Of a stretch of 41,061 nt of DNA, positions 697 to 31,362 are shown piece after piece; position 1 is the stretch's first letter, and each line of letters opens with the position of its first letter. Both the position numbers and the translations under genes were made by a program. Origin of the DNA: a virus. Lineage: Duplodnaviria > Heunggongvirae > Uroviricota > Caudoviricetes. Location of the stretch: IMG/VR virus record IMGVR_UViG_2770939580_000003, positions 1 through 41,061 of that record; one strand, given 5' to 3'. The notes beneath the pieces were generated by a model. The model had not been told where the DNA came from and did not search any database. It saw nothing but the letters and a program-made list of their open reading frames with translations.

Positions 697-726
697 CTCT
701 ATACGTAGAATTTCCTACAAAGTTAA
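697..726 (-). promoter_or_regulatory. ECF-type promoter motif TTAAC-N16-CGTATAG
   Basis: minus strand TTAAC TTTGTAGGAAATTCTA CGTATAGAG, about 50 nt upstream of the ATG at 650. Confidence 0.75.
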
Positions 727-747
727 GAGTGGGGTTCGAGACTGAAT

Positions 748-1107
748 CTAACTCTGACTTATTAGCATATAATGTTTCTGCATATGCTGGATGGCGCTGC
801 TCAATTCCACGACTTGTTTTGAAACAAATGAATCTATTAATGGCTCACTAGCTTGAACTCCCACACCCAGAATGAATTTATGTTGTTTGAATGCTTGATG
901 CATTACAACCACTTCCGTACACGAAAAGCCAGTCCTCTGGAGATTAACTAGAACAACATCCGCCTGATCAACCATCTTATCAACGATCAAGGCATACTCC
1001 CTGCCACTCAAGCTCGAAGAAGCTGAAGTATCAGGAAATGCCCAAGCAATCTCAGGAATATTCACAACGTCCTCCATCCGAAATCCCAATACTATAACAC
1101 TAAGCAT
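748..1107 (-). CDS. nucleoside 2-deoxyribosyltransferase-like (Rossmannoid) protein, probably degenerate
   Basis: start moved to ATG 1107 (GGAG RBS 9 nt upstream); motif ADVVLVNL...G...HQAFKQHKFILGV resembles NDT-like folds. Confidence 0.5.
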   Translation of the reverse strand: MLSVIVLGFRMEDVVNIPEIAWAFPDTSASSSLSGREYALIVDKMVDQADVVLVNLQRTGFSCTEVVVMHQAFKQHKFILGVGVQASEPLIDSFVSKQVVELSSAIQHMQKHYMLISQS

Positions 1108-1144
1108 GCTATATCGCTCCAATCTTTGCACAATGATACATTTT

Positions 1145-1172
1145 CTATACGAAATAAAAAACACCCTGTTAA
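1145..1172 (-). promoter_or_regulatory. ECF-type promoter motif TTAAC-N16-CGTATAG
   Basis: TTAAC AGGGTGTTTTTTATTT CGTATAG; the -35 element lies in the loop of terminator 1156-1179. Confidence 0.75.
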
Positions 1173-1179
1173 GGGTGTT
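1156..1179 (-). terminator. intrinsic terminator downstream of the sigma gene
   Basis: AACACCCT-TAAC-AGGGTGTT followed by TTTT. Confidence 0.8.
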
Positions 1180-1270
1180 GCTTGCTCATATGAAATATAT
1201 GTAGGTGTTCAATCTAAGGTTATTATTCCGTAAGGCTATGCAATCTAGGCTATTAATTGCCACTATGTAA

Positions 1271-1834
1271 TTAAAGCGCTTCGTATTTAATGCGAATCCC
1301 CTTCCATATTTGTGATATCCTCGCCTTGGATACCCCCATCAATGCTGCAATTTCTACAAATTCATACCCTGACGTTCGAAGTTTAAAAATCTCTTTCTCA
1401 CGTTCATTCATGCCCATATTTTCCATGATATCGGTAAGAAATTCGAAGTTCTCATAAGCAAATCCGGTATGCCCCAACACCAGAGCCATATCTCCCCCAT
1501 CACCTTCATCTCCACCATGATCCGTGGTTATAATCTGTGCCGCATTCACCACACTAAGGTTTTTCTCAGATGTACATTTACGATACATATCCTTGATTTT
1601 ATTATCAATTAAGTGATCTACAAAGGTTGACATTTTGGCTTTATCAGCATCGTACTTCTCTAACGAATGAACCAGTTTGATCAAAATTTCTTGAGTAACA
1701 TCCTCTTTCTCCATTCCAGCGAACGTTTTCCCTCGCAGCTTGTGACGACATTTCTCCTGTGCTTTGTTCAGGAACATATCAATATCCCCTATTTCAAATA
1801 AAGCATCAAACCCCATAGCAGTTGTAGCTGACAT
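1271..1834 (-). CDS. sigma-70 family RNA polymerase sigma factor (ECF/SigH-like, regions 2 and 4 only)
   Basis: region 2 EDVTQEILIKLVHSLEKYDADKAKMSTFVDHLIDNKIKD; region 4 HTH MNEREKEIFKLRTSGYEFVEIAALMGVSKARISQI; GGAGG RBS. Confidence 0.9.
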   Translation of the reverse strand: MSATTAMGFDALFEIGDIDMFLNKAQEKCRHKLRGKTFAGMEKEDVTQEILIKLVHSLEKYDADKAKMSTFVDHLIDNKIKDMYRKCTSEKNLSVVNAAQIITTDHGGDEGDGGDMALVLGHTGFAYENFEFLTDIMENMGMNEREKEIFKLRTSGYEFVEIAALMGVSKARISQIWKGIRIKYEAL

Positions 1835-2110
1835 TATATTTCTCCTCCAGTAACAAAATAATGATCAGAACATAAACTCGTTTTACCAATCTTCCTTCGG
1901 CAACCTAAAAAGATCTTCCCTGCTTCTACTGAACATATGTAGTTATTGCTACTCCTTAAAGTCAGGTCATGTCTAATCTAACAGCACTTGAATACAACCT
2001 TCGTTTGATCCGCCTCCCTCTGTCATGAAGTTACATTAAGGATAACAAATACGAACTAATGTTCGCAACTTATTTTTACTTGTGTATCTCTCAGTCTCTT
2101 TTACACTCTT

Positions 2111-2137
2111 TATACGAAATAAGATGTGTAAGGTAAA
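2111..2137 (-). promoter_or_regulatory. ECF-type promoter motif, variant TTTAC-N16-CGTATA (possible autoregulation)
   Basis: TTTAC CTTACACATCTTATTT CGTATA, about 280 nt upstream of the sigma ATG; one mismatch in -35. Confidence 0.5.
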
Positions 2138-2150
2138 GAGCTCCAGAATA

Positions 2151-2215
2151 AAACTAAAAAGACCAACACAGAGCGCACCACTGGAAAATACCAAAATGGT
2201 GGAATGTGTCGGTCT
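2151..2215 (-). terminator. long hairpin plus U-tract in the sigma gene leader (attenuator-like)
   Basis: AGACCGACACA pairs with TGTGTTGGTCT; inner CACCA/TGGTG stem; followed by TTTTAGTTTT. Confidence 0.6.
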
Positions 2216-2322
2216 TGGTCTGACTTCATATTTCGTTCCAATTACCGAGAGTATGGTCTTCATCGCATAAAAAGAATACAGGCTTCATCAAGATTATTAA
2301 TCTATCCAATCGCCATAAGGGT

Positions 2323-2352
2323 AGTATAAGGAAATATGTAGGATAATGTCAA
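2323..2352 (-). promoter_or_regulatory. SigA-type promoter TTGACA-N18-TATACT
   Basis: perfect -35 (2347-2352), 5/6 -10 (2323-2328), T-rich upstream tract. Confidence 0.75.
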
Positions 2353-2407
2353 CAAAAAAATGGTTCCCTAGTACCTGATTGCGATTATTTGAGCAACCTT
2401 GTAGTTC

Positions 2408-2824
2408 TCAGGGCATGTTTATCTCATCGTTTTTCAGCAAAACCTCAATATCTTTATTCATTTTGAAAACCGTCACTTGCTCCGTAAACTCAGGGCCAAA
2501 GAACGTCGTTTCGACTTCTTCAATGCTTAACCCCATATGAATAAAGGAGAAGACAGGATTGAAATTTTCCTTCATCATGAGCGCAAGCTTCATTTTATAA
2601 TCAGCGAAAACTTCGCTTTCATGTGAATGCATATGCTCCAGCATGAAGGTCTCCGGCTTGGTGAATTTTGCTGTAAACTTCAAGATGATGAAATGGTTCA
2701 TGATGGAAACCCTGGTGTCTACCGGCCCGCGTTCTGTAATGTTTTTTCTAACTCTCGATGTAAGTTTGGCGAGCTCTCTTTCCAAGTCCTTTATTTCAAT
2801 GTTTCCATCCCCCCCTTGCCTCAA
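2408..2824 (-). CDS. DUF2294 / MpsC-family protein
   Basis: motif KNITERGPVDTRVSIMNHFIILKFTAKFTKPE typical of DUF2294; start codon uncertain (TTG). Confidence 0.75.
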   Translation of the reverse strand: MRQGGDGNIEIKDLERELAKLTSRVRKNITERGPVDTRVSIMNHFIILKFTAKFTKPETFMLEHMHSHESEVFADYKMKLALMMKENFNPVFSFIHMGLSIEEVETTFFGPEFTEQVTVFKMNKDIEVLLKNDEINMP

Positions 2825-2939
2825 CTCCCGGCCTTGTACTGCCCCGAATACATGAATTCAACCTAATTTAATCAAAAGTCGTTATACAAGACAAGTTTCC
2901 TGTAAAATCATTAAACCAGCATCCACTCATCTTTAGATG

Positions 2940-2981
2940 AAAAAGGAATAGCCCCCAGATCTAGGCTGAGTTCTATCCCTT
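2940..2981 (-). terminator. two-part hairpin plus U-tract
   Basis: AAGGGATAG-AA-CTCAG-loop-CTGGG-GG-CTATTCCTT-TTT. Confidence 0.65.
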
Positions 2982-2999
2982 CTACATATGATTATTGTG

Positions 3000-3191
3000 T
3001 TATACGTCTCCTGAATCTTCCAGTTTCAATAAACTAAATGCTACCAGATGGAGAGCAGCCTGAGGACCATACTCGTGTTCAATCTGTTCCATTGCTTCTT
3101 CTGTTGCTCCCACCAGATCCTCCTTATCCGAAATCATTTCGGTGGTCACAATCTGCTCCTTATTCAGTGCGAAGGTCAGTCTGTACAGCAT
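3000..3191 (-). CDS. small hypothetical protein (63 aa)
   Basis: start moved to ATG 3191 with GGAGGTG RBS; overlaps the upstream gene. Confidence 0.7.
   Translation of the reverse strand: MLYRLTFALNKEQIVTTEMISDKEDLVGATEEAMEQIEHEYGPQAALHLVAFSLLKLEDSGDV
3001..3028 (-). promoter_or_regulatory. ECF-type promoter motif TGAAAC-N16-CGTATA (exact SigW consensus)
   Basis: TGAAAC TGGAAGATTCAGGAGA CGTATAA in the last codons of the 63-aa gene. Confidence 0.6.
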
Positions 3192-3483
3192 CAGTTTCCA
3201 CCTCCCTGGAGACCAGCTCAATATTCCGAATATCCGTCAAATCAATGATATGTACCATTTCAGTAGTATCTTCAAGCGTAATCGATTTACCTTCATTTTT
3301 ATGTTTAGTAAACAAACGACGGTACTCCTGCTTCACTTCATCTGCAGTTAGTGGAATTTCTCGAATGACCTTATCTGAATCCTTTTCTTTCTGTTGCAGT
3401 CGGGGATTATCCTCAATCCAGATAATTGATTTCTTTTTCCCGCTGCCTTTGAAATAAAAATGCGCTGTTAGTTCAATGTTCAT
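3160..3483 (-). CDS. hypothetical protein (107 aa)
   Basis: start moved to ATG 3483 with GAGGAGG RBS; upstream ECF-type motif. Confidence 0.75.
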   Translation of the reverse strand: MNIELTAHFYFKGSGKKKSIIWIEDNPRLQQKEKDSDKVIREIPLTADEVKQEYRRLFTKHKNEGKSITLEDTTEMVHIIDLTDIRNIELVSREVETDAVQTDLRTE

Positions 3484-3510
3484 TCTGTAATTCCTCCTCT
3501 TCACTACTCC

Positions 3511-3540
3511 CTCTATACGTAGAGCTCAAAATAAGGTTAA
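3511..3540 (-). promoter_or_regulatory. ECF-type promoter motif TTAAC-N16-CGTATAG
   Basis: TTAAC CTTATTTTGAGCTCTA CGTATAGAG; shares 13 nt (TCTACGTATAGAG) with the 697 site. Confidence 0.78.
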
Positions 3541-3544
3541 TAAG

Positions 3545-3569
3545 AAAAAGGATAGTTTGGACTATCCTT
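3545..3569 (-). terminator. intrinsic terminator ending the structural operon
   Basis: AAGGATAGT-CCAA-ACTATCCTT-TTT overlapping the stop codon at 3562. Confidence 0.8.
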
Positions 3570-4482
3570 GATATTTCTTTACAGCAATTCGATTCCCTAG
3601 TGAATCGTATATATAGCTAAATTTAGTCTGCATCGGCGTGGTTCCCATGGCGGTTATGGACTTGGCAACCATTCGGCCCTCCGTATCATATTGATAGATA
3701 ACATCTAGCAACCCCGGCAACTGAACAAACGCCTTACCATCAAATCGGTAAACCTCACCAACGGGAATGACCATTAATGAATCATTCTCTGCATAATCAT
3801 CTGTAGACGGTGGCAAAGTCCAAACCGGCTCTCTGACGGACTGCTCCGTGTAGTTGTCCGTGACCACTTGTCTTATAATTCTCCCCTGCTCGTCAAAAGC
3901 AAAATAAGTAAAAACATCTGCGTAATCCACTAAATCGCTATAAACTTCCCATGAATCTATGGAGCGAAGTTTGCTGCGCTCCTCTCTGGTCATGCTCACA
4001 TGATCCTTGCCATCAACAATCATATCAGCACTATGGATATCGGGATGTATATAGTGATTGGCGCTAGGCTCTATATTGGAGAGTTTTATTCGTTCTTCTC
4101 GAGTCATAACAACTCTAATGTTACCATCAGTCAACATATCAGCATCATGCGTATCTGGATGAGTATAAACCACTGTTTTGGTTCCGTTAAGAATGATGGC
4201 TCCATTTTCTGTATGATTAGATAACCGATCCCCACCAGCTTTAACATAAGCGAGACCATCATAAGTATATAGTGTTGGTTCATTTTGATTCCCAATGTCC
4301 TTTTGTACCATATACACTCGTCCATTATCACCTTTGGTTGGAAGCTCAGACTTTAACTTAACCGAAGCTACATTACCGATAGAAAGTGCTTCCATTCTGT
4401 TATCCAAAGTCATATAAGAATCTCTGGCTTCTCTGACTTCACGTTCTACTTTTGCGGCTTTGCTGTAAGAAACAATATCCAC
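3562..4482 (-). CDS. tail fibre-like minor tail protein with tandem HPxxH repeats and C-terminal YD-like hairpins
   Basis: EVREARDSYMTLDNRM motif; duplicated Y(T/I)HPD(T/I)H.ADM..DG....MTREER.KL; YQYDTEGR / YIYDSLGNR. Confidence 0.6.
   Translation of the reverse strand: MDIVSYSKAAKVEREVREARDSYMTLDNRMEALSIGNVASVKLKSELPTKGDNGRVYMVQKDIGNQNEPTLYTYDGLAYVKAGGDRLSNHTENGAIILNGTKTVVYTHPDTHDADMLTDGNIRVVMTREERIKLSNIEPSANHYIHPDIHSADMIVDGKDHVSMTREERSKLRSIDSWEVYSDLVDYADVFTYFAFDEQGRIIRQVVTDNYTEQSVREPVWTLPPSTDDYAENDSLMVIPVGEVYRFDGKAFVQLPGLLDVIYQYDTEGRMVAKSITAMGTTPMQTKFSYIYDSLGNRIAVKKYQG
3955..4167 (-). repeat. in-frame tandem duplication, period 114 nt (38 aa)
   Basis: copies start at 4167 and 4053 (YTHPDTHDADM... 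/ YIHPDIHSADM...). Confidence 0.85.
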
Positions 4483-4496
4483 GGAATTCCTCCTTT

Positions 4497-4892
4497 CTAC
4501 CTTGTCGTCAGACCAGTGACCTCTATATCGAAGTGCGATACATCTGTTCCTAAATTTTTCAACGACATATGAAGTGTCGAAGTTTCGTCTATGTCCGCGT
4601 ATGGAAGATCAATCATGTCATAGATACCCTCTATGAAATTCCCCGTAGAATACTGAGCATTGTTAAAATAAAGTACATCGGGGCTTGGTCCAGCACTGTT
4701 TAAAACTTGAACTTCTACATTGGTTTCCCTCGTTGGAACAACCCTGATCGTTTTGATCATAAATCGAGGGTGCTCCATAGGAATATGGATAAACGCCTTT
4801 GCTCCTCCATCAACATGCTCTACTTTTTGTACAAATGAAACGGGTAGCAGCACTTTTCTCATCTCCTCCATTAGCTCCCAGCTTCGATTCAA
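4497..4892 (-). CDS. small beta-rich hypothetical tail-associated protein
   Basis: 131-aa ORF coupled to its neighbours within the tail operon. Confidence 0.7.
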   Translation of the reverse strand: MNRSWELMEEMRKVLLPVSFVQKVEHVDGGAKAFIHIPMEHPRFMIKTIRVVPTRETNVEVQVLNSAGPSPDVLYFNNAQYSTGNFIEGIYDMIDLPYADIDETSTLHMSLKNLGTDVSHFDIEVTGLTTR

Positions 4893-5455
4893 GTTCCTTC
4901 CCTCCTAACAGGAATATGTGTATCCGGATAACGGCGCGGACGCAGATGCTTCATTGATCCGATCCCGCTACCATCATAGGACCAATCCCCCCATGTTTTG
5001 CCCTGCAATGCCACTTGCCTAACAGGTATTTTGACTTTAATGCACCAGTCCATGCCTGGATCATTCTGCTTCACTTTTACACCTTTTATCGCATTTCTAA
5101 TTACGCCTGTACCACTCGATTTAGTCGGTATTCTTTCGAGTAATATTTTGTTATTCTCGATAGCGCTTCCCGTCACTGTTCTCATGCCGTGTGCATACTG
5201 ATCAGAAACGTATCCAATTAACGGGTCCTCATGTGTGTCCATCACTCTCCATGTGCCCCACCGATAGTTATCTGAGGATATAGCTTTGGTGAACAGATTG
5301 CCTACAGAAGTTATGATCTCTTTGCCCTCATAAGCCGATGGAGCAGATTCCAGATCGTAACCGTTCTGGTACAAGTCCTCTGACTTACTTAGTGTGAATA
5401 GAGTACCACTTGCGGCAGGACCTGCGATTTTCCCCTCAAGCACACTCATGTCCAT
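4889..5455 (-). CDS. hypothetical tail-associated protein
   Basis: 188-aa ORF; 4-nt overlap with the downstream gene. Confidence 0.7.
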   Translation of the reverse strand: MDMSVLEGKIAGPAASGTLFTLSKSEDLYQNGYDLESAPSAYEGKEIITSVGNLFTKAISSDNYRWGTWRVMDTHEDPLIGYVSDQYAHGMRTVTGSAIENNKILLERIPTKSSGTGVIRNAIKGVKVKQNDPGMDWCIKVKIPVRQVALQGKTWGDWSYDGSGIGSMKHLRPRRYPDTHIPVRREGT

Positions 5456-5462
5456 TCACCGC

Positions 5463-6254
5463 CTAATCCATTAGAACTGAAACAGTGGCACCTGATAAGA
5501 AACTTTGACCACCAATAGACAGAGAATATACTTTATAGGTTTTAGTCCCTACCTTTATCTCATCCCCATGCGATACTCCCGCTGAAGGAACAGTAAAAAT
5601 ATCAATAAGCTCGCCCCTAGGACCTTCAACACCATTACACATAATCACTGGAGCCATATGATAGAGTGAACCCCAACCCGGGTTGACCGGCAGCATTACA
5701 GAATATGCATCATAGATGTTGTTCACCATTCGTTTATCTTTATCTCTTAACGTCTGTATGCCATTGTCACCGTTATAACTTAGCCCTACCCCTAGACTGG
5801 AGGAATCACTTTCTGCTGCATAACGATTCAGAATACCAAAATATCCAAGATTAGAAATACCAGTAACCGAGTTCACATCCCCCTGCAAATAGATAATGAT
5901 ACGATTCGGTTGCACTGAGACGTGATAATCAATTAAGAGATTTGTATCCACAGCTCTGGTATGACATAGAAAATCCTTTTTAATCTCTGATTTCCCGGCA
6001 GGAACGCTGCCATCCGATGCTACAACATCCTCTAACACACTGATAGTCAATTTATTTCCTGTCGTTTCTTTCGTATTTCCAACTTCAAGTCTAAAGAATA
6101 ACTTATCTGAACCGCTTGTTCCAACGGATTTCAAAATGATTGCACTAGCCCTTTCATAGTAAACAGACCACGGTGAGCCCGTAATCGTTTTAAAGCCTTG
6201 AACAATATTTGCAAATAACTCATTCATTTTTACCTTGCCCGCAAAATTCGCCAT
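5463..6254 (-). CDS. EGxRG-family structural protein, paralogue 5
   Basis: start ATG 6254 (GGAGGTG RBS); C-terminal APVIMCNGVEGPRGELIDIF..HGDEI shared with four other ORFs. Confidence 0.75.
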   Translation of the reverse strand: MANFAGKVKMNELFANIVQGFKTITGSPWSVYYERASAIILKSVGTSGSDKLFFRLEVGNTKETTGNKLTISVLEDVVASDGSVPAGKSEIKKDFLCHTRAVDTNLLIDYHVSVQPNRIIIYLQGDVNSVTGISNLGYFGILNRYAAESDSSSLGVGLSYNGDNGIQTLRDKDKRMVNNIYDAYSVMLPVNPGWGSLYHMAPVIMCNGVEGPRGELIDIFTVPSAGVSHGDEIKVGTKTYKVYSLSIGGQSFLSGATVSVLMD

Positions 6255-6269
6255 TTGTATCAACACCTC

Positions 6270-7223
6270 CTATATTTGAAAAAGCAATGCTCTCTGTCCT
6301 CCACCAAGCAGCTTGGCGCCATGGAAAAACTTAGGTCTCCCATAGACCGGTACCTGGTTCGTATTGTAATAATATCGACCGGTATCTGCATTGGGGTAGT
6401 CCTGATCCATAACATGGAATACATAATATTTCCCGTCTTGTCCCAAATCGAGAATAGATCCGTCCGGGTGCTGCACACTGTTTTTAAATACAATAGAACG
6501 TATGCCTTTGAGTTCTCCTCTTGCACCCTCTAATGGATGATAGACCATAAAAGGCGTGACATAATACCTGGAACCAACACCTGGAGAAGGAATAGATTCT
6601 GTGCCAAAGTTGTAAAGAGTGTATTCAGTACCATTCCGCGAGGCCATCACTACACCTCTTGGTGTATCATATTGATCGGCAGCGTTGTTATCTGAATAGG
6701 CAAAAGGCATATGTGGGAATACACCGTAAAATTTACTCGCAATAGCCGGATCCTCCTTTTCTATCGCTTCGCATTTGCCCAGGAAAATCCGAACGGGATA
6801 CGCTCTTTCAGGATAATTCAAGCTCTCCCCATGAATGAACACCATATCCTCATTTGTAATGACGGACCACTTGTAATTCACGTTGTACTGACCATTATGG
6901 CACATGAAGGGCGTTTCCAATAAAAATTTATCGATATCCGCAGGAGGATTTATAAATAGATCAGGCAAAGCAACACTGCCCCCTTGATTTTTCAGTCCCC
7001 AACGAACATTCACACCTCTGGCATGAGCCACCACACACATCGTAAACCGCATATATGAACTTTTCGTATTCGTTAATAGAACGTTTCCCCAATTCGCATA
7101 AGTCGTTTCGGCTGTATATAAAGTTTCCCAATACGGATCCAGTGCATTTTTAAGTGTGCTGGCCAGTGTCGTCGCAAAAACGCTCAAGGTGCAAGTAAAC
7201 TCGTATCTTCTGATCATCGTCAT
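6270..7223 (-). CDS. EGxRG-family structural protein, paralogue 4
   Basis: TPFMVYHPLEGARGELKGIR...PDGSILDLG. Confidence 0.75.
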   Translation of the reverse strand: MTMIRRYEFTCTLSVFATTLASTLKNALDPYWETLYTAETTYANWGNVLLTNTKSSYMRFTMCVVAHARGVNVRWGLKNQGGSVALPDLFINPPADIDKFLLETPFMCHNGQYNVNYKWSVITNEDMVFIHGESLNYPERAYPVRIFLGKCEAIEKEDPAIASKFYGVFPHMPFAYSDNNAADQYDTPRGVVMASRNGTEYTLYNFGTESIPSPGVGSRYYVTPFMVYHPLEGARGELKGIRSIVFKNSVQHPDGSILDLGQDGKYYVFHVMDQDYPNADTGRYYYNTNQVPVYGRPKFFHGAKLLGGGQRALLFQI

Positions 7224-7226
7224 CGA

Positions 7227-8309
7227 TCACACCTCCTTCTCTATTTCGAACAGCAGCACTCTTTGCCCACCACCGAGAAGAAGGGGAGAATCAAAGAAGT
7301 AAGGTTGGCCAGCGTATGCCGTACCATTCGTTGCATAGAATTGCTGATTAGCAGCAGGATGTGCTTGATTCAATGCATGAAAAATATAATATCTTTCATC
7401 TCCCAGATCTAATATCGACCCATCGGGATATTTGCTGGCATCACGGAGAACTGCAGTTCGTATACCGTGAAATTCCCCTCTTGCCCCCTCTGTCTCATGC
7501 CATACGTAAAATGGTGAGATAAAGAATCGGCCACCCACACCTGGTGAAGGAACCTGCGAACTTGTGGCAAAATGATATAACGCATTAGGTGTCCCATTTC
7601 GAGACGAACGCATGTATCCTCGTCCTGTCCGGAACTTTAACTCATCATCATTGTCAATCATGCCATGGGGAAAGTGTGAAAAAATCCCTACACTATCATC
7701 TGCAATCAACGGATCTTCTTCTTCAAATGCCTTAATCTTTCCTAAATACATTCGGAAGGGATAGGCCACATTCAGGTTGGTCTGAGGTTCACCGTAGATA
7801 AAGATATAATTCTCGGAGATAAACAAATTCCATTTCCAATAGACATTTACTGCTGTATGTACGCGTTGATAGTCTCCAGAATAAACAGAATTATAGTCCA
7901 TAGTGTGAAATGGGACTTCAGATATTGCACCAAGTTCCTTGTACAAATCAGGTATTATTGTTACTCCATTATTTTTTAGCCCTGTTCTTAAAACATAATT
8001 TTTTGAATATGCTCCCCGACTATTATCAGATGCATAAGTATAACTAGATGAATTCATAGAAATTGTGAAAAACAAATTAGAATCTCTTAAGTTTTTCGCG
8101 GTGATAGTTCCTTGATTAGCTATGCTGTTCAATCCAGTATTCCAAGATTTGGGCTGAGCATATGTATTAGTTGTACTATAAGTCCATTCCCAATGGATAT
8201 CTCCATACAAATCCTGTGTTACTGTATCATAGAATGTCTTGATAAACGTCGAACAATAGGAGTAAAACTCGTAACGACGCAAAGCGCCCAAAAGTATATT
8301 TTCAGCCAT
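7227..8309 (-). CDS. EGxRG-family structural protein, paralogue 3
   Basis: SPFYVWHETEGARGEFHGIR...PDGSILDLG; closely similar to 6270-7223, including the C-terminal LLGGGQR. Confidence 0.75.
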   Translation of the reverse strand: MAENILLGALRRYEFYSYCSTFIKTFYDTVTQDLYGDIHWEWTYSTTNTYAQPKSWNTGLNSIANQGTITAKNLRDSNLFFTISMNSSSYTYASDNSRGAYSKNYVLRTGLKNNGVTIIPDLYKELGAISEVPFHTMDYNSVYSGDYQRVHTAVNVYWKWNLFISENYIFIYGEPQTNLNVAYPFRMYLGKIKAFEEEDPLIADDSVGIFSHFPHGMIDNDDELKFRTGRGYMRSSRNGTPNALYHFATSSQVPSPGVGGRFFISPFYVWHETEGARGEFHGIRTAVLRDASKYPDGSILDLGDERYYIFHALNQAHPAANQQFYATNGTAYAGQPYFFDSPLLLGGGQRVLLFEIEKEV

Positions 8310-8320
8310 ACCCAGTCCCC

Positions 8321-8674
8321 CTATGCACCAAATCTCATTCTCATATCATTTAAAATATGTTCCTTGATTGCCGAGAGTAGAATAGCTTTGGTCATCTCAC
8401 TTCTCTCAACTAATTCATGATTTATCTCTTTTTTTTCCTCGTTGCCTAAGAATGTATCAACTGCTTGATCAGTCTCTGCGATTTCCTGAATCTCATGTAA
8501 TCCTTTTAATGAAGGCAAAAACTTATGCGCAACACTATCAAAAAGAATATGGCTTTCAAAAGCAAAAATCAGAGTCTCGATCTCTTCCGTACTAAATGGC
8601 TCTTCATGATTACCCACTAACTTATCCATAATGGCATGAAGTGCAAATTTTACATCCTGCACTGTTCTCGTCAT
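8321..8674 (-). CDS. acidic helical hypothetical protein (possible fibre chaperone)
   Basis: 117-aa ORF directly after a fibre-like gene; no hydrophobic segment; the chaperone role is inference from position. Confidence 0.6.
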   Translation of the reverse strand: MTRTVQDVKFALHAIMDKLVGNHEEPFSTEEIETLIFAFESHILFDSVAHKFLPSLKGLHEIQEIAETDQAVDTFLGNEEKKEINHELVERSEMTKAILLSAIKEHILNDMRMRFGA

Positions 8675-8675
8675 A

Positions 8676-10442
8676 TTAGATCACAACCTTTCTGATTTTT
8701 ACATGTTTAATATTACCGCTGCCGTCATACTCAAAAATTTTCTGGACACCCTGACCGTCATAGATCACCGTCTCAGTTTTCACTGTGCCGTCGGCATTAT
8801 AAATAAAAAGGTTTTTTTTCAACAGCTGCGGTGTTTCTTCGGCAGTGAATATTTCCTCCGACTCGACATCCCCATTCGGAAAATAACGATACACAACATC
8901 CAACTCTAGCCCTGTGCCTTCCAAAAAAGTTAGTCTTCGCCGCAGATCGGTATCATCAAACGTTGCGCCTCCTTGAAGTACATAATAATCAGCACCATTG
9001 TTAACTTCACGAAGTACTTTTCCGGCAACATCCCGTTGATATTCAATCGTTTTAACCTGCCCGCTACTTTCAGTAATTTCTTGCTTTTCAAGAAGACCCT
9101 CTGGAGTATAAAAGTGCTCAATTTTTCGATTGATCCCTCCATGAATCTGTTCCAGGTGTACCTTTCCGTCCGGATAATAAGTGTAGTCTGTTGTCGATGT
9201 CGTATTAATAATAGAACCTCTGCTAATGACAGTGACCCTTGCTTCCTTAGGCACATCGAAAGTAAATCGAATTACTGTATCACTGTATTCAATGTAGTCG
9301 TCTCCCACATCCATACGGATACCATCTAGAAAAACTTCGGTTGAATTCGCACCGATCACATACCTTGGAATCTGAAAATCTCTAACCATCGACAACCTAC
9401 TGTTAGGAGAAGAAGTGTAATGAAAAACAGATTGATGTTCTATCGTTCCGCGACTCTCAGCGAGTTCAAGACGACTTTGCATGTTATCCAGCCGATCCTT
9501 CAGAGCATCATAAACGACTCCGTTTTTATCTTGGCGTGATTGATTGACCTCTTCCGAAAACTTCTCCAGCTTTGGTTTCATTTCGTTAATTTTAGTTTCA
9601 TGTTTAGCCACATCGGAAACCTGATCAGCAACAGTCGTTTCAAGTTCTGACACTCGCCCTCCAAGCTCAGAAATATCCTGCTCGACCGAACCTTTGGTTA
9701 AAAAGTACCTGAAATCAAGAGTAGTAAGAGAGGTTGTAGGCGAAAGACCAATATCAAGCCCGCCGATAATAATCGCATCCAGAGGTTCTTTCTGATCTGT
9801 GCTATGCGAGAATGTTCCATTTTCATGCAAAAAAATATAATATGTTGTGTTCTCTGAAATATCGGAGATTATATAAGTTTGCGAGAACTGATCTACAATA
9901 ATTTTGTTAATACTGGCTCGCCCTGCATGAATGGTTACCTGTACACTATTGCTGCTACTAAGATAAACCGGATGAGATACACCCAGATCCTGAATAGATT
10001 GCTTGCCAGATAATTCAACTGAATTCTCCAAGGTATCTAAACGATGATGGAGAGAAGACTCTGCTCCCCGGGCCTCATCTATCTCTGTTTCAACCAGAGT
10101 TAATCTCTTCTCCTGATCCTTGTGATACTGGGCAAGTATGTTAATATCTGATCTTGCCATGAGAACATCCTGTTGAGCATCCTCCAGCCTTGTAGCATGG
10201 GATTTAACCTGGATTTCAACATCATGCAAACGCTGATCATGATTCGTTATCATCAACTGGTTCTCATTCGCAGATTTTTCTATAACACTAATTCGCTCGC
10301 CAATATCTACTGCTGAGCCTCTGGCTTTATCTAATTCTGCAAGATAAGAATCAATCTCATCATGAGTTCGAATCCCAATATCCACTAACTCCTTATGGCT
10401 CTTCGCAGATGATGTACGAGACTGGTTAATCCTTACTGACAT
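8676..10442 (-). CDS. coiled-coil tail fibre-like protein with YD-like beta-hairpin repeats
   Basis: long heptad regions; EIDEARG..SL..RLD motifs; tail-type beta module EVFLDG...VGDDYIE; repeated Y.PDG / YNADG / EYDGSG hairpins. Confidence 0.6.
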   Translation of the reverse strand: MSVRINQSRTSSAKSHKELVDIGIRTHDEIDSYLAELDKARGSAVDIGERISVIEKSANENQLMITNHDQRLHDVEIQVKSHATRLEDAQQDVLMARSDINILAQYHKDQEKRLTLVETEIDEARGAESSLHHRLDTLENSVELSGKQSIQDLGVSHPVYLSSSNSVQVTIHAGRASINKIIVDQFSQTYIISDISENTTYYIFLHENGTFSHSTDQKEPLDAIIIGGLDIGLSPTTSLTTLDFRYFLTKGSVEQDISELGGRVSELETTVADQVSDVAKHETKINEMKPKLEKFSEEVNQSRQDKNGVVYDALKDRLDNMQSRLELAESRGTIEHQSVFHYTSSPNSRLSMVRDFQIPRYVIGANSTEVFLDGIRMDVGDDYIEYSDTVIRFTFDVPKEARVTVISRGSIINTTSTTDYTYYPDGKVHLEQIHGGINRKIEHFYTPEGLLEKQEITESSGQVKTIEYQRDVAGKVLREVNNGADYYVLQGGATFDDTDLRRRLTFLEGTGLELDVVYRYFPNGDVESEEIFTAEETPQLLKKNLFIYNADGTVKTETVIYDGQGVQKIFEYDGSGNIKHVKIRKVVI

Positions 10443-10472
10443 TTGACCACCTCCATTCTTGCCTTATTGTAT

Positions 10473-10500
10473 CTATACGTTATTCAATAATGAAAATTAA
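10473..10500 (-). promoter_or_regulatory. ECF-type promoter motif, variant TTAAT-N16-CGTATAG
   Basis: the -35 element includes the TAA stop of the upstream gene; -10 is about 30 nt upstream of ATG 10442. Confidence 0.65.
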
Positions 10501-11630
10501 ACATATGTTGAGTACATCTGAAGGGAAAATTTAACCTGGGAAGTATATCTGTCCTGGGATTCTTCACGTTCCATCCGCAACCAAAACGAATATAACTCTC
10601 CCGGTAAAATCTTAAACGCAGTTACAGAATAGCTGAATGCTCCAGGCATTCCATCGACATCGGGTGCAATCTGTACCTTGTCCATCCCATTCATAAGCTT
10701 AAACGTTACGTCTCTAAACTCTCCGGAGGCCATCGGGTTTCTCGCATACATCCGCACTTCCTGTACTCTGGAACCCCCTGTTGTTAAATAACCAAGAAAA
10801 CGATCGGTGTTGGGATACAGAAGCACATCAAATTCTTCACCCGTTTCCGCGTTAATTTCCTTATAATACATGTCTGGTGTAACCTCAAATAACATTAGAT
10901 CACCCTTGTAAAGCTTCATGGAACCCTGTCCCAGATATTGATTTCCGTCGACGAGTTTAACTCTGAAACTGCCCTCTAAGGGATAAGGATAAGTATCCAT
11001 ATTAAACTGTACTTCCGTCGCACTGGATCGACATACTCTGCTTTCCAATACAATACCATTCGAATCAAGTAACTCCACTTGGGTACCACTGGTCAAATTA
11101 TCCAAATACACCGATGTGCTTCTATTAATTCGAACCTGTTCCACAATCATGGGATGGTCACCTTCACCTTTTAAGTAAAGACCAATCTTGGGAGCACCTG
11201 CTAGCTCGATAGAACCTATGATATGCCATACTAGACCATCATCTGACCAGTATGCAGAATAATAGTTATACTCTCGCATTAAGCGAATCCAGGGATAGCT
11301 CTTCAAGAGCGGTGTTGGTAGAGATGTATCCAAAAATTCTTCAATCTCCATGAAATTGTGCTCATCGATGAAAACAACAACACCACCGTAGCAGCCTTCC
11401 GTTTCGGGGTTATAATTGTTTTTGACATCCATTACGAATTGTTTTAACGCAGTCAATGGCTTGTAAAACATATATATCGGATCACTACCATGTTTAAGTG
11501 TTAGATGACCCTGCCCCGTTTCGTATCGACTGTCATCGCCAGGTAACACTTCCCAGTTCGCATCCAGACTATGACTTGTAAAAGAATCTTCGTATATTTT
11601 TCCAGATTCCTTTAGTCTCGCGACTCCCAT
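10497..11630 (-). CDS. concanavalin A-like (beta-xylosidase C-terminal type) lectin domain protein
   Basis: FTSHSLDANW...GHLTL...GGVVV...WIRLMR..NYYSAYWSDDG..WHIIG...KIGLY pattern of non-catalytic ConA-like domains. Confidence 0.65.
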   Translation of the reverse strand: MGVARLKESGKIYEDSFTSHSLDANWEVLPGDDSRYETGQGHLTLKHGSDPIYMFYKPLTALKQFVMDVKNNYNPETEGCYGGVVVFIDEHNFMEIEEFLDTSLPTPLLKSYPWIRLMREYNYYSAYWSDDGLVWHIIGSIELAGAPKIGLYLKGEGDHPMIVEQVRINRSTSVYLDNLTSGTQVELLDSNGIVLESRVCRSSATEVQFNMDTYPYPLEGSFRVKLVDGNQYLGQGSMKLYKGDLMLFEVTPDMYYKEINAETGEEFDVLLYPNTDRFLGYLTTGGSRVQEVRMYARNPMASGEFRDVTFKLMNGMDKVQIAPDVDGMPGAFSYSVTAFKILPGELYSFWLRMEREESQDRYTSQVKFSLQMYSTYV

Positions 11631-11646
11631 GCTTATCCTCCTCTCA

Positions 11647-16272: not shown

Positions 16273-16293
16273 TCCAATCACCTCCCAATTACG

Positions 16294-16321
16294 CTATACG
16301 AAAAAAGGAGCACCGAGTTAA
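16294..16321 (-). promoter_or_regulatory. ECF-type promoter motif TTAAC-N16-CGTATAG
   Basis: TTAAC TCGGTGCTCCTTTTTT CGTATAG immediately upstream of the RBS of the 1541-aa gene. Confidence 0.78.
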
Positions 16322-16330
16322 TCGGTGCCC
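16301..16330 (-). terminator. intrinsic terminator after the 1901-aa gene
   Basis: GGGCACCGA-TTAAC-TCGGTGCTC-CTTTTTT. Confidence 0.8.
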
Positions 16331-22023: not shown

Positions 22024-22042
22024 TTCACGACCTCCTTCCGAT

Positions 22043-22084
22043 AAAAAAAGGGAACCCCCTGAGTGGAGTCTCAGAACGTTCCCT
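22043..22084 (-). terminator. two-part hairpin plus U-tract in the leader of the 1901-aa gene
   Basis: AGGGAAC-GTT-CTGAG-ACTCCA-CTCAG-GGG-GTTCCCT-TTTTTT, ending about 5 nt before the RBS. Confidence 0.75.
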
Positions 22085-22094
22085 CTTGCTGAAT

Positions 22095-22122
22095 CTATAC
22101 GACACAGCTTACATTCAGTTTA
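22095..22122 (-). promoter_or_regulatory. ECF-type promoter motif TAAAC-N16-CGTATAG
   Basis: TAAAC TGAATGTAAGCTGTGT CGTATAG, intergenic. Confidence 0.7.
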
Positions 22123-22124
22123 AT

Positions 22125-23261
22125 TTAGGCTGTATAGCGAACTTCTTTCAGGATCGCCACACCCATGCGTTGGTTAGCCGATAGATTCATAAAATTTTGA
22201 GCCGTATCTGTGTCAAAATAACGATATACCTCTTGATTCCAGGTTTTCCCTTCAACATCAATAATCAACTCATCGAGATGCAGGATATTATGTTTGGTAA
22301 CCGCAATGCAGTTATCAAATTGACCGCGATACCCTTCATATGGATGAACAACATAAATTGGAGACAAATGATATTTCGAAGTCCATTTTGAAGCCTGAAA
22401 GCCCTGCGGTTCCAATTCGAGACCAGTATCTCCTAATTCCGGATCTTGATAAGCTTTCCCTTTCGGTGGAGCCTGTGTAATAAAAGAAGGATAATGCTGC
22501 TGAAACTCAATGCCCGACTTGGTTTTTAACATCTGAAGTGTGTTGTTACCAGCAGAAGTATATTGCCCATAATAATAGGTCCCTGTCGACGCAATTTTAG
22601 AGATATCAGGCTCATCAATAACCGCACCAGCAGTCAGCATTACATTTCCATCCACATCATTCAGATTGTATTTAAACGGTTTAAGGGCACCGACGTACAG
22701 GAACGATTTTTTGTAATCCAGGAAGTTTACAGCCGGGTCGGCCACAAGAACCATAGCCAATCGGTTGTTCATAACATTTACATACATATATACAGGCTTT
22801 TCTTTATTTCGATCTGTCGGCGTGTAATTTTCCAGCGCCCATTGGTACAGTACAGGGTGACCTGTCAATTTGAATGTTGGACGAGTAGTGACTGGCAGCG
22901 CTGCTGGTTCACTGCCCTCCAAATCTTCAAGCAACTGAACAGTTAATGTACTATGTTCCTCGTAAGCTGGTACGGGAGCAACCTCACGTGGTACAAGCGC
23001 ATGATTAATAAAGCTCACATAAAAATGTTTTGTAATTGGGGTTGTCTGCGTTCCAATCGTCATAATGCCCCGCAAAATTAATTCCTGGATGCGATTGTTA
23101 CTGTCCTTCTCTTCGTAGAAGACTTTCCATTGATTTTGCTCTTGAGCTTCACCTGCAGTTGATTCGTAAGGATAATTTCCAAAGTCAGTAACTTCTTCCT
23201 TCAATTTAGTCAACAAGTCCTGAGAAGTAGTAATTGTTTCTACATATTTAAAATTTGTCAT
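22125..23261 (-). CDS. EGxRG-family structural protein, paralogue 2
   Basis: NNRLAMVLVAD...SPIYVVHPYEGYRGQFD...LDELIID. Confidence 0.75.
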   Translation of the reverse strand: MTNFKYVETITTSQDLLTKLKEEVTDFGNYPYESTAGEAQEQNQWKVFYEEKDSNNRIQELILRGIMTIGTQTTPITKHFYVSFINHALVPREVAPVPAYEEHSTLTVQLLEDLEGSEPAALPVTTRPTFKLTGHPVLYQWALENYTPTDRNKEKPVYMYVNVMNNRLAMVLVADPAVNFLDYKKSFLYVGALKPFKYNLNDVDGNVMLTAGAVIDEPDISKIASTGTYYYGQYTSAGNNTLQMLKTKSGIEFQQHYPSFITQAPPKGKAYQDPELGDTGLELEPQGFQASKWTSKYHLSPIYVVHPYEGYRGQFDNCIAVTKHNILHLDELIIDVEGKTWNQEVYRYFDTDTAQNFMNLSANQRMGVAILKEVRYTA

Positions 23262-23275
23262 TTGTATTTTTCCTC

Positions 23276-25231
23276 CTATTTTATCTCTTTTAAGAATGCA
23301 ATGGTGATGACATCTGGTGAAGGAGAATGCTTGAACAGATTAAGCGGGCTTTTAATGCTGAAAAATTTGTACACTTCTGTCCATGTTCCCAGCGACGGTT
23401 TGGAAGGGTCCTTCAGAATCTCGGTATCTACAATCAATTCATCGCGATTCACCAGATTATGGTCATAGATCGCAACCACACCGTCCATATACCCCCGATA
23501 ACCTTCTGCCTGATGAACCAGATAGATTGGACTTGCATGATACTTTCCAGTCCACAGTGACTTTTGGAAGCCTGCCGAATCTACAATTAACTTGGAGAGA
23601 CCTGAAGGAAGTTTCCCTACAGAAGGATAATTCGGCAGATGCGAGATAAATGCTGGATAATAGCGTTGGAACAACACGTTGCTTCTTGTTTTCAACATAG
23701 ACATGGAATCCATACCATTAGAGGTGTACTCCCCATACTGGGCATAAACATCTGGATTAAGATCCGTCAGAATATCATTTTTGGTATAACCCGTCATATC
23801 CGTCCGAAGATCTCCCATTCCTACGGTTACGCCAAAATTCCCTCCGTGATCAAACTCATTAAACGGTACAATTTTACCTATGTATCCAAAACTTCGATAA
23901 TAGCTGTGAATATTAGGGGAAGGGTCTCCTTCAAGTACCAGGACAACGCGATCGTTATTCACTGAAAGAGTATACGATACTAAATAATCCGGTCTTCTTT
24001 TTTTATTAGGAAGCCATGATGTTGTAGAATTACGACCATGGAAAAAACGTGCAGCCGGGCTAACAATTTCTGTTTTCTCGTCATAATCCAGTTTCCATTT
24101 CGTGGATGGTGGAACAAATGGTTTAAGTGCCTCAGGATCATTCCATACAAGATACATATAATGCGCTTTTAGCTGGTCAATGACAGTTGGTGATTTCCCC
24201 AATGTAATGCTATCCGGATCACAGATCCCGTCATACGTTTTACTTTCACTGCCTTGCTCATTTTTGCCTTCAAAACCTTCTCCATAGTAAACATTAATAT
24301 AATTCCAATCATTAGCAGGCTGCTCAAGCATGACATAATAATCACGACTCTGGATGCCCGAAGGAACCGTAGGTGTTGCTTTGACAACCGTTTGGGCAGT
24401 TGCATAATTCAGAACATCAGCTGTGTAGTAGAGTTCATCAAATTTGTAGGTTTGTTTAACAGGTTCGTAATAACTATCAACAATACTGGCCCAATCCCAG
24501 TAAGGGGATGAATATTGTGATACTACTCTTCTGGTAAAGTTATACTGATACTTCCCCTTTGGAGTAAGCTGGATTGCATAAGCCCAATCCGTAGGCATCT
24601 CTGTAATGATCTCAAATTGATTCCATTCCGCAGATGGTTTTGTTGTTCCATCCAGATTGCCAATAACCTGGCGTACAAGATAAGCTCGGTACCCCTCAGA
24701 AACCGAACTATCCTGAACTACTGTTACTAGACATCCAGGAACATCCACATATACTGTTTCTTTCGTAAGATTATCCTGATAGCTGAATTGAACAACCTGA
24801 ATTTTTCTTCCTGTCTTATAGTTTCCATAAGTTGTACCCACATTGGACGAGTTTGGATTAGGCTTGCCTTCAATTTTCTCATCGTAGTAAATCGACCCTA
24901 CTTCCCAAAGACAACCATCTGCATCTAGTGCTGAATCCCCGGTGTGACTTTTAGCCCCTGTCCAATCCGGAATTTTGTACACCCCATATTGCTTTCCATC
25001 CGAATGAGCATACATGCCAACGATACCTTTATGATAATTCTTACTGTAGGTGACCCATTTCGCTCCATCAGACTCATACACCTTTTTCCAGCGATTAGCG
25101 TCAAGGCCACCTTCAGCTCTGGGAATATCAGCATTCACAATCTCATCCGCCAAAGTATTAATCAGTTTTTGTGCTTCCGATTCTCCGTCCAGATATGCGG
25201 CAAAATTCGTTAGCGGTTTTTGCAGTGCCAT
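23276..25231 (-). CDS. EGxRG-family structural protein, paralogue 1 (with large insertion)
   Basis: start ATG 25231; NDRVVLVLEGD...SPIYLVHQAEGYRGYMD...RDELIVD. Confidence 0.75.
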   Translation of the reverse strand: MALQKPLTNFAAYLDGESEAQKLINTLADEIVNADIPRAEGGLDANRWKKVYESDGAKWVTYSKNYHKGIVGMYAHSDGKQYGVYKIPDWTGAKSHTGDSALDADGCLWEVGSIYYDEKIEGKPNPNSSNVGTTYGNYKTGRKIQVVQFSYQDNLTKETVYVDVPGCLVTVVQDSSVSEGYRAYLVRQVIGNLDGTTKPSAEWNQFEIITEMPTDWAYAIQLTPKGKYQYNFTRRVVSQYSSPYWDWASIVDSYYEPVKQTYKFDELYYTADVLNYATAQTVVKATPTVPSGIQSRDYYVMLEQPANDWNYINVYYGEGFEGKNEQGSESKTYDGICDPDSITLGKSPTVIDQLKAHYMYLVWNDPEALKPFVPPSTKWKLDYDEKTEIVSPAARFFHGRNSTTSWLPNKKRRPDYLVSYTLSVNNDRVVLVLEGDPSPNIHSYYRSFGYIGKIVPFNEFDHGGNFGVTVGMGDLRTDMTGYTKNDILTDLNPDVYAQYGEYTSNGMDSMSMLKTRSNVLFQRYYPAFISHLPNYPSVGKLPSGLSKLIVDSAGFQKSLWTGKYHASPIYLVHQAEGYRGYMDGVVAIYDHNLVNRDELIVDTEILKDPSKPSLGTWTEVYKFFSIKSPLNLFKHSPSPDVITIAFLKEIK

Positions 25232-25242
25232 CGTCACCCTCC

Positions 25243-25653
25243 TTATTTCAAAAATTTGATGTTGTACCAGACCGTTTTGGCCTCAGGCACTACGCTTACG
25301 AAGTCGAACTTGATTGTGGTTCCAGCCGGGATCGGGTAAACAATACCGAAGCTGTTCCCCATCGATACCGATTCGGGAAGTTCCTTCGTATAAATCGTAT
25401 TGCAAATTCTCTCTTTCCCGATGGTCAGTTCCCAATAATCACCCACGCAATATTGACTTGCTGCAAACGCAATGCTAAGGAACTCCGTGTCATACGCCAG
25501 AGTGAACGTATCCGACTTCGTGGTCTTCGCCGCTGGAATATCCAACATCTGTCCCCGAATGAACGGGATTGTTTTTTTGCTGAAGTGTGGGTACGGCAGC
25601 TCGCGCACTTTGTCGATGACGCCACCCGCGATATAGGATACGTTAAATGCCAT
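25243..25653 (-). CDS. small beta-sandwich hypothetical tail protein
   Basis: 136-aa ORF with AGGAGG RBS and an upstream ECF motif. Confidence 0.75.
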   Translation of the reverse strand: MAFNVSYIAGGVIDKVRELPYPHFSKKTIPFIRGQMLDIPAAKTTKSDTFTLAYDTEFLSIAFAASQYCVGDYWELTIGKERICNTIYTKELPESVSMGNSFGIVYPIPAGTTIKFDFVSVVPEAKTVWYNIKFLK

Positions 25654-25671
25654 GAAACCACCTCCTGTAGG

Positions 25672-26088
25672 TTATATACGATGTACATTTGTACCAGTTA
25701 AGCGTCCTTCGTCATCATAATTCAGAGCAATATTATAGGTAAACATGGCTTCTCCTTCTGCATCAAACGTTCGGGCCGTTACCTGGGTTAAACGGTAGTA
25801 CCTGTAATATTCATAATCTGGATGGTCATAGCCTACACTTGAAGGAAAATCATCCTCGTCTTCTGACCCGAATTGGAGCCAGATGGATACCTTCCATTGG
25901 GATTCATAGATAAGATCTGCCCCAGTGACACGGTCCGGGTCCTTTATATGTTCTCGATACAAGGTTACAGAAGGCTCGCCTTCCAGCGGTGAAACGCTAG
26001 ATGAATTTGTACTGCTGAATTTTCGAAGCTCTCGGTGAATCAAATCCAGCACGGGAAATACGATATTTTCGTTGACAATGCCCGCCAT
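25672..26088 (-). CDS. hypothetical tail protein with terminal YD-like hairpin
   Basis: 138 aa; overlaps the hub gene stop by 1 nt; ends LNYDDEGRLTG. Confidence 0.7.
   Translation of the reverse strand: MAGIVNENIVFPVLDLIHRELRKFSSTNSSSVSPLEGEPSVTLYREHIKDPDRVTGADLIYESQWKVSIWLQFGSEDEDDFPSSVGYDHPDYEYYRYYRLTQVTARTFDAEGEAMFTYNIALNYDDEGRLTGTNVHRI
25675..25701 (-). promoter_or_regulatory. ECF-type promoter motif TTAAC-N16-CGTATA
   Basis: TTAAC TGGTACAAATGTACAT CGTATA in the last codons of the upstream gene, just before the next RBS. Confidence 0.72.
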
Positions 26089-29210: not shown

Positions 29211-29225
29211 ATGCACTCGCCTCCT

Positions 29226-30629: not shown

Positions 30630-30660
30630 GACATACACCTCCTGTATTTAGAATAGACAG

Positions 30661-30685
30661 AAAAAAGAGTAGGTTACCCTACTCT
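30661..30685 (-). terminator. intrinsic terminator (GNRA loop) between the two SLH genes
   Basis: AGAGTAGG-GTAA-CCTACTCT-TTTTT overlapping the stop codon at 30679. Confidence 0.8.
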
Positions 30686-31329: not shown

Positions 31330-31362
31330 AGCTGAATCCCTCCTTTTTTCATTCTGAATTGT

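Follow-up and report, generated by a model that had tools for sequence, protein, structure and literature searches.

A two-part promoter-like motif and its probable sigma factor in a headless, phage-derived element of Paenibacillus

The closest described counterpart of the system considered here is found in the Brevibacillus phages Jenst and SecTim467, in which Berg et al. (2016) reported about 20 copies of a promoter-like motif that the host lacks and that they ascribed to a phage sigma factor (PMC4909266). The locus analysed here is a stretch of 41,061 nucleotides (nt), called the window, which is the IMG/VR virus record IMGVR_UViG_2770939580_000003 and corresponds to C2:186582-227642 of a Paenibacillus genome (G000; 6.26 Mb, 47% GC). 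It belongs to a chromosomal element of ~45 kb (about C2:184,980-229,650), which has the host gene dacB on one side and ytfJ on the other. The minus strand of the window carries a repeated two-part motif (in short form TTAAC, 16 bases and CGTATAGAG) and the gene of a 187-amino-acid (187-aa) sigma factor, which is probably the factor that reads it.

As in Jenst and SecTim467, the motif consists of two parts, is repeated upstream of genes and is absent from the host genome. Jenst also shares the order of helicase loader, helicase, primase, small sigma factor and DNA polymerase, followed later by transglycosylase, DNA-binding protein and large sigma factor. The Jenst consensus obtained here by a scan is GCAACT, about 16 nt, CGACCATAAAGAGTGTAAGG, and it resembles the element motif in the AAC...CG geometry and in a downstream AGAGTGTAAGG-like tail. 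The boxes differ, being GCAAC-N17-CGAC in Jenst as opposed to TTAAC-N16-CGTA in the element, and the small sigma factors are only 23% identical, so that the Jenst motif is to be viewed as belonging to a sister class of promoters. Both phages are free-living siphoviruses (126-130 kb), while the element is a 45-kb headless chromosomal remnant, and unlike in these phages its motif also heads tail-fibre genes.

The defective prophage PBSX of Bacillus subtilis has heads and essentially one late operon, of structural and lysis genes, which is turned on by Xpf. Xpf is a small sigma factor of sigma2-sigma4 build that controls particle production (PMC10141391). It is similar to the 187-aa protein in being a small two-domain sigma factor from a defective chromosomal prophage and is a functional analogue to which no sequence relationship was seen; the element, unlike PBSX, is headless, has at least eight dispersed promoters and encodes a second sigma factor. 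The sigma factors of SPO1 are also functional analogues. The gp36 protein of phiEco32 and the sigma factor of Salmonella phage 7-11 likewise redirect the host core RNA polymerase to phage middle and late promoters (PMC8948821, PMC4331800), although these phages are lytic, infect Gram-negative hosts, and have sigma factors unrelated in sequence and another promoter consensus.

The promoters of the B. subtilis sigma factor SigW have the consensus TGAAAC-N16-CGTA. The element motif is similar to them in the AAC of the -35 box, the CGTA of the -10 box and the 16-nt spacer, and a variant copy lies upstream of the sigma gene itself, as in autoregulated sigma factors of the extracytoplasmic function (ECF) group. 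It differs in having T for G in the -35 box, the 187-aa sigma factor has no recognisable anti-sigma factor and is not clearly a group 4 member, and the regulon consists of phage structural genes rather than envelope functions. A phage sigma factor with its own promoter set is a familiar phage strategy; the lineage described here is itself unstudied.

A repeated motif at gene junctions

The sequence strongly supports T(T/A)AAC-N16-CGTATA(G)AG as a promoter class of a phage lineage. A first-pass annotation of the window had listed ten co-oriented copies, and all of them are present within 1-3 nt of where it placed them:

P1, 700..726, minus strand: TTAAC-N16-CGTATAGAG, preceding a 146-aa open reading frame (ORF; 210-650); in 13/13 genus genomes and G378, with divergent spacers
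P2, 1146..1172, minus strand: directly after the 187-aa sigma gene; also present in G054 and G126, there with N17
P3, 2111..2137, minus strand: variant TTTAC-N16-CGTATA(T/A)AG, upstream of the sigma gene (276 nt from its start); all 13 genus genomes have TTTAC
P4, 3001..3028, minus strand: TGAAAC-N16-CGTATA, which fits the SigW type perfectly; a terminator comes next
P5, 3514..3540, minus strand: 8 nt after terminator 3548-3569 and before a 114-aa ORF; 13/13 genomes, 13 distinct sequences
P6, 10474..10500, minus strand: TTAAT-N16-CGTATAGAT, before a 588-aa gene (8676-10442); 13/13 genomes, 13 distinct spacers
P7, 12120..12146, minus strand: exact match within the 1544-aa ORF; G000 only
P8, 16295..16321, minus strand: before the 1544-aa gene; 13/13 genomes, G378 and G402
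P9, 22096..22122, minus strand: TAAAC-N16-CGTATAGATTCAG, between the stop codon of a 378-aa gene and a 1901-aa gene; 13/13 genomes
P10, 25675..25701, minus strand: before a 136-aa virion protein gene (25243-25653); 13/13 genomes, G378, G170 and G402

The strict pattern T[TA]AAC-N16-CGTATA has seven matches in the window, all on the minus strand, as opposed to 0.02 +/- 0.14 expected from 100 dinucleotide-preserving shuffles of the window. The looser AAC-N16-CGTA has ten matches against 2.5 expected, eight of them on the minus strand. In the whole genome the strict pattern is found 14 times, with seven matches inside the window (0.66% of the genome) and two more within 900 nt past its right end; versions with N15 and N17 spacers have six matches each, none of them in the window. 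A position weight matrix trained on the ten listed sites themselves ranks seven of these sites as the top seven matches of the genome. The sequence CGTATA stands at N16 in all ten sites (N17 in the P2 orthologues), and at the eight conserved sites the -35 box contains AAC (TTAAC, TAAAC) or reads TTAAT, except that TTTAC of P3 keeps only AC.

Outside the element the genome has five strict matches, three of which lie within ORFs, and neither the genome-wide pattern scan nor the weight-matrix scan found a cluster of host genes carrying the element motif. The neighbouring SPbeta-like prophage has zero copies. The share of genome-wide matches that falls inside the element is 11/14 in G378, 6/11 in G054 and 5/14 in G126, while the element-free genomes G025 and G041 have nine and four scattered matches, no more than a reversed-pattern control. 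The frequency above genomic background on which the first-pass annotation depended is thereby borne out.

Seven junctions (P1, P3, P5, P6, P8, P9 and P10) carry a match in 13/13 genus genomes, and with P2, for which three genomes were checked, eight of the ten listed sites are conserved at the same gene junctions. All junction copies are co-oriented, with 0-1 opposite-strand matches per 40-kb stretch in the 13 genomes. At P1, P3, P5 and P6 all 13 sequences differ, and the spacers and upstream flanks show 38-43% pairwise difference. The invariance of the boxes arises in part by construction, because the search pattern fixes both of them. Two observations do not depend on the pattern: none of the seven junctions lacks a match in any genome, and positions outside the pattern are also conserved, namely the GAG that follows CGTATA (differing by 2-10%) and a GTA some 8 nt further downstream (8-18%). 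The -35 box of P6 is TTAAT, TTAAC or TAAAC across the genomes, and that of P9 is TAAAC or, in two genomes, TGAAC. P4 is absent at the aligned orthologous positions in G054, G126, G378 and G374, and P7 from all 12 other genus genomes scanned; both are probably chance or strain-specific matches rather than members of the conserved set, which reduces the proposed ten members to eight.

The motif extends to more distant relatives of the sigma factor. Two proviruses of ~112 kb with a 74%-identical sigma factor have 20 and 18 motif copies against 0 for the reversed control; in one of them, G402, each copy was checked and is co-oriented with genes, the copies lying before blocks of replication, fibre and leftward genes. 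In a relative of 125 kb, the sigma factor of which is 44% identical, there are 11 copies with the -10 box CGTATAAGT. Relatives with 44-100% sigma identity keep TTAAC-N16-CGTATA, while at 38% identity CGTATATA is kept with a different -35 box, and G404 (42%) has no match to the TTAAC-N16-CGTATA pattern. The motif is confined to the phage or element, and across the relatives with 44-100% sigma identity it travels together with the sigma gene. At the place equivalent to P3, before primase and sigma genes, G378 and the Brevibacillus proviruses G401 and G402 have a canonical TTAAC promoter.

The conserved sites lie 21-72 nt upstream of ribosome-binding sites and start codons, with the exception of P3 (276 nt). 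For P1, P2, P5, P6, P8 and P10 the distance to a start codon that has a good ribosome-binding site is 21-49 nt, in agreement with the six sites predicted to have -10 boxes 20-50 nt from a start. The real start of the ORF downstream of P2 is likely the ATG near 1106, and that of the 114-aa ORF behind P5 is likely the ATG at 3483. The operon of P1 continues to the SLT gene and the gene of a 279-aa sigma factor just left of the window. In two cases the promoter is fused to a terminator: TTAAC of P2 forms the loop of the hairpin 1160-1179 and TTAAC of P8 that of the hairpin 16308-16330, with the T-run of each hairpin serving as the spacer. A unit of this kind would stop incoming transcripts and restart transcription only with the sigma factor.

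The motif does not cover the whole locus, contrary to the regulon first proposed, since no copy is present at 25,701-39,573 or before the holin-amidase lysis genes:

25702..39573, minus strand: motif-free block of ~14 kb, defined by the motif scan; the same block in G402 is also motif-free

The window has no plus-strand copy, as had been noted, but a conserved one lies ~400 nt past its end (C2:228041-228067) and is found at the same place in G054, G126 and G378. This copy points toward the 3' end of the convergent amidase-holin genes, over which it may now yield antisense transcripts. The equivalent site in G402 heads a 619-aa gene that is missing in G000.

The sigma factor likely to read the motif

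The gene of the small sigma factor lies between P2 and P3:

1271..1834, minus strand: 187-aa sigma factor whose only domains are sigma2 and sigma4 (Pfam Sigma70_r2 and r4)

It scores 58.9 bits with TIGR02937 (cut-off 42.9), the only model, a general one, that passes its cut-off, and the AlphaFold2 (AF2) model consists of two confident helical domains connected by a disordered linker at residues 91-130. The AAC/CGT boxes with 16-nt geometry are a hallmark of promoters read by two-domain sigma factors. The helix of region 4.2 is nearly invariant across homologues of 34-100% identity, which matches the stable -35 box. Upstream of the gene lie a conserved sigmaA promoter and a promoter of its own type, P3, which is a candidate autoregulatory promoter. 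The agreement of geometry with a two-domain build, region 4.2, these upstream promoters and the precedents for SigF/G-like proteins make the 187-aa protein the most likely reader of the motif, and we consider this assignment probable. The first-pass annotation had assigned the sites to an ECF-like sigma factor of the locus; its promoter assignment is strongly supported and the 187-aa protein is the best candidate, while membership in the ECF group (group 4) is not established.

This last point is one of several that weigh against the assignment. Region 4 scores best with the FliA and WhiG models, and the closest sequence with a solved structure and the top structural match are both of the SigH type, amid mixed sigma groups. 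No anti-sigma factor was recognised beside the gene in Pfam, NCBIfam or PHROGs, the neighbours being a 138-aa ORF and an MpsC-like (DUF2294) gene. The sigma gene stands behind a terminator, so its first round of expression would need read-through. Transcripts from P9 would at once meet a strong, conserved terminator (about 22044-22085) that separates it from the 1901-aa gene; such an arrangement could give a small RNA, tuned read-through or antitermination. Finally, the 279-aa sigma factor co-occurs with the 187-aa one in every checked relative that is not cut off there. The inverted repeat CTGAAT/ATTCAG brackets the -10 box of P9 and is kept at another position in the second allele group.

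The 279-aa protein (L001:18401-19240), which is SigB/F/G-like, offers the alternative that it reads the sites and that the 187-aa factor reads another class of promoters. It is intact, ~80% conserved in 13 species and present in all relatives that could be checked, G401 appearing to lack it because its contig ends ~2 kb short of the expected position, and a second set of conserved boxes exists for the other sigma factor to read. The co-occurrence of both proteins and their strong divergence from the Jenst counterparts (23% identity for the 187-aa and 29% for the 279-aa factor) mean that comparative genomics cannot separate the two readers. However, the 279-aa gene ends an operon headed by motif promoters, with no other conserved promoter before it; it is reached only via P1 and P2 and past terminators. 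As the reader it would be needed for its own first expression, so a reader of the motif must exist before it is made. We know of no AAC...CGT promoters for the SigB/F/G group. The phage SigF/G-like sigma factors that have been studied act on host sporulation genes, and g120 of SP10, the only one of them with a deletion test, is dispensable for virulence (PMC9429907). A role of the 279-aa protein as reader of the motif is unlikely on these grounds. A host SigW-type ECF factor, the other reader proposed at first, would solve the bootstrap problem and tie the element to envelope stress; the motif resembles the B. subtilis consensus TGAAAC-N16-CGTA(TA), the host has a true SigW and P4 is a perfect site of this type. 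Against it, in 13 species the conserved sites show T instead of G at the decisive place of the -35 box (two genomes with TGAAC at P9 being the exception), P4 is found in this strain only, and the element motif is on no host genes, with background counts in element-free relatives. The host does have 17 scattered TGAAAC-N16-CGTA sites, but these SigW-type sites carry GAAAC and not TTAAC. Control by SigW is therefore improbable, and the 'production' that it was to link to envelope stress, a word suggesting a biosynthetic cluster, does not fit a locus that encodes phage tail parts.

It is still less probable that the repeats are not promoters at all and represent binding sites of a repressor or activator, or RNA structures of 3' ends. 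Several copies do overlap terminator hairpins, and a terminator follows directly after both P9 and the unconserved P4, before the next gene. The motif, however, lacks dyad symmetry. The spacing of its boxes is constant at 16 nt whereas the sequence between them changes, every copy runs in the direction of the genes at the distances given above, and the hairpin-free copies P1, P6 and P10 are equally conserved.

Two further candidates were rejected. A third sigma factor (212 aa, SigK/E-like, L002:12644-13282) belongs to the SPbeta-like prophage and not to the element. A single-subunit or YonO-type RNA polymerase, which the distant relative 0305phi8-36 possesses (PMC2147016), was discarded as no RNA-polymerase Pfam match was obtained among the element ORFs and the motif is made of two parts whose spacer varies. 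The transcription families of PHROGs are matched only by sigma among these ORFs.

Origin of the element

All genes of the window from 1 to 39,573 are on the minus strand, and the family matches are to phage virion and tail families, with an M23 peptidase match in the 1042-aa protein (Pfam). Glycosyltransferase genes lie at 37,854-39,573 (minus strand) and 39,705-40,508 (plus strand). To the left of the window are the transglycosylase (SLT gene) and the 279-aa sigma factor, followed by host dacB, spmAB and the res operon, and to the right are amidase and holin, followed by ytfJ, a host sporulation gene. The holin-amidase pair stands just outside the window (L002:709-1919). Beyond ytfJ a large serine recombinase opens the separate SPbeta-like prophage, which related genomes lack.

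The structural genes are distantly related to ORF132 of Bacillus phage 0305phi8-36 and to the Brevibacillus phages Jenst and SecTim467, and a nearest-phage search of the phage collection, by DNA and by the 187-aa sigma protein, gave no match. Homologues of this sigma factor with 83-90% identity are present in 14/59 other species of the genus, and more distant ones in other Paenibacillus, Brevibacillus laterosporus and Peribacillus. In 13/13 genus genomes compared the element directly adjoins dacB. Its proteins are 78-95% identical to those of G000, with 41-75% for the fibre genes and 80-85% for host DacB; a divergence similar to that of the flanking host genes fits vertical inheritance. The fibre genes (window 3562-4482 and 10497-11630) fall into two allele groups with 41-57% and 67-75% identity to G000, and the genes beside the fibre region hold 80-95% identity, a pattern expected for exchange of receptor-binding modules.

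No integrase, replication or head genes were seen in the element when gene content was compared for G000, G054 and G126, and the ten remaining genus genomes have an element of the same length and layout. Neither terminase nor portal is found in C2:184,980-229,650. A longer version is present in Paenibacillus sp. D2_2 (G378), where helicase, primase and polymerase genes lie between the tail genes and the sigma gene. The Brevibacillus proviruses G401 and G402 from IMG/VR (about 112-113 kb) contain a complete head module, the same tail genes, a replication block and a terminal serine recombinase, and G402 also has both sigma factors. In the head block of G402 (G402:33,400-43,700) ten of the 11 proteins have no match in G000, the eleventh being the tube protein, so that the window is a headless, replication-less remnant of such a ~112-kb phage. 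Head and replication genes have thus been lost from the locus, which is best explained as a domesticated phage remnant and looks like a tail-particle element with its own holin-amidase pair.

Leader RNA, second boxes and a possible cascade

Upstream of P3, a conserved non-coding region and two sigmaA-type promoters are located ahead of the sigma gene:

2323..2352, minus strand: sigmaA-type promoter TTGACA-N18-TATACT, 11/12 matches; hexamers kept in 13 genus genomes and G378
2156..2316, minus strand: conserved non-coding RNA or leader of ~160 nt with a long intrinsic terminator at its end; P3 lies on one side and the sigmaA-type promoter on the other
2866..2894, minus strand: second sigmaA-like promoter, TTGTCT-N17 then TGATTAAAT, with an extended -10, conserved; boxes assigned by our own reading

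The Brevibacillus counterpart of the first promoter is TTGACT...TATAAT. The leader is present in 13 genus genomes, G378 and Brevibacillus (L004:8443-8603), in each case directly before the motif promoter through which the sigma gene is reached. Rfam matched no family on the whole window or in a sensitive scan of 1800-3000, and the leader sequences vary too little for a covariation test. A 75-aa ORF (2036-2263) that overlaps the leader is probably spurious. The second sigmaA-like promoter precedes the MpsC-like (DUF2294) gene 2408-2824, which is always ahead of the leader and the sigma gene in the Paenibacillus and Brevibacillus relatives and the product of which might regulate the sigma factor.

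It is proposed that the promoter at 2323-2352 would transcribe the leader, normally ending at its own terminator, and that read-through, or a low activity of the variant P3, would give the first 187-aa sigma factor; a trigger could plausibly lie in conditional read-through at this terminator. The sigma factor would then take the host core RNA polymerase to P3, in a positive feedback, and likewise to P1, P2, P5, P6, P8, P9, P10 and the plus-strand copy past the window end. These promoters would start expression of small genes, of the fibre and distal-tail genes, and of the operon with the 279-aa sigma gene at its end. Observed directly are the motif with its enrichment and conservation, its gene context and the terminator fusions, and we infer the promoter activity of the sites, the identity of the reading sigma factor and this bootstrap route from the sequence. 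A search for sequencing runs listed no RNA run that covers window 600-10599.

The motif-free block contains two glycosyltransferases, a 212-aa ORF, a tube-like 277-aa protein, two chaperone-like ORFs, a 1273-aa tape-measure-like protein, 216-aa and 470-aa proteins, and a 1042-aa hub with the M23 peptidase. Matches to sigmaA-type promoters are not enriched in this structural block (40 found against 44.9 expected). A second family of boxes, with the sequences GTTAG-N18-TCTAnACTA and CGCCTAACCTAnACAT, is present instead and is a candidate promoter class for another sigma factor:

37162..37170, minus strand: second-class box, GTTAG-N18-TCTAnACTA, upstream of the tube-like gene; conserved
39601..39609, minus strand: second-class box upstream of the first glycosyltransferase; a similar box lies before the holin (L002 near 1958)

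The box of the tube gene is also kept within an ORF of G402, and a similar box is found at G402:43281. These boxes permit a wider reading, which we put forward tentatively as possible rather than likely, of a vertically inherited headless tail-particle machine of at least 13 Paenibacillus species with a self-contained two-step sigma cascade. A constitutive sigmaA promoter would fire into the leader and its terminator, and conditional read-through would make the 187-aa sigma factor. This would in turn fire the TTAAC-N16-CGTATAG stop-and-restart cassettes, including the operon of the 279-aa factor, which would then read the second boxes of the glycosyltransferase, tube, hub and lysis genes, with lysis last.

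The finding is solid at the level of sequence, and its interest is raised by the domesticated headless element, the terminator-promoter fusions and the conserved leader. The fusions of terminator loop and -35 box appear to be a compact design in which each gene block would be strictly sigma-dependent. The sigma-promoter pair appears insulated from the host, because the motif is on no host genes, and could be an orthogonal expression switch in Bacillales. With these sites, the operons can be mapped and a likely master switch named for an uncharacterised ~112-kb phage lineage of Paenibacillus and Brevibacillus, as well as for its headless derivative. If the motif is indeed read by the 187-aa sigma factor, expression of this factor alone should activate the fibre and distal-tail genes and would be a simple way to learn the product and the role of the element.

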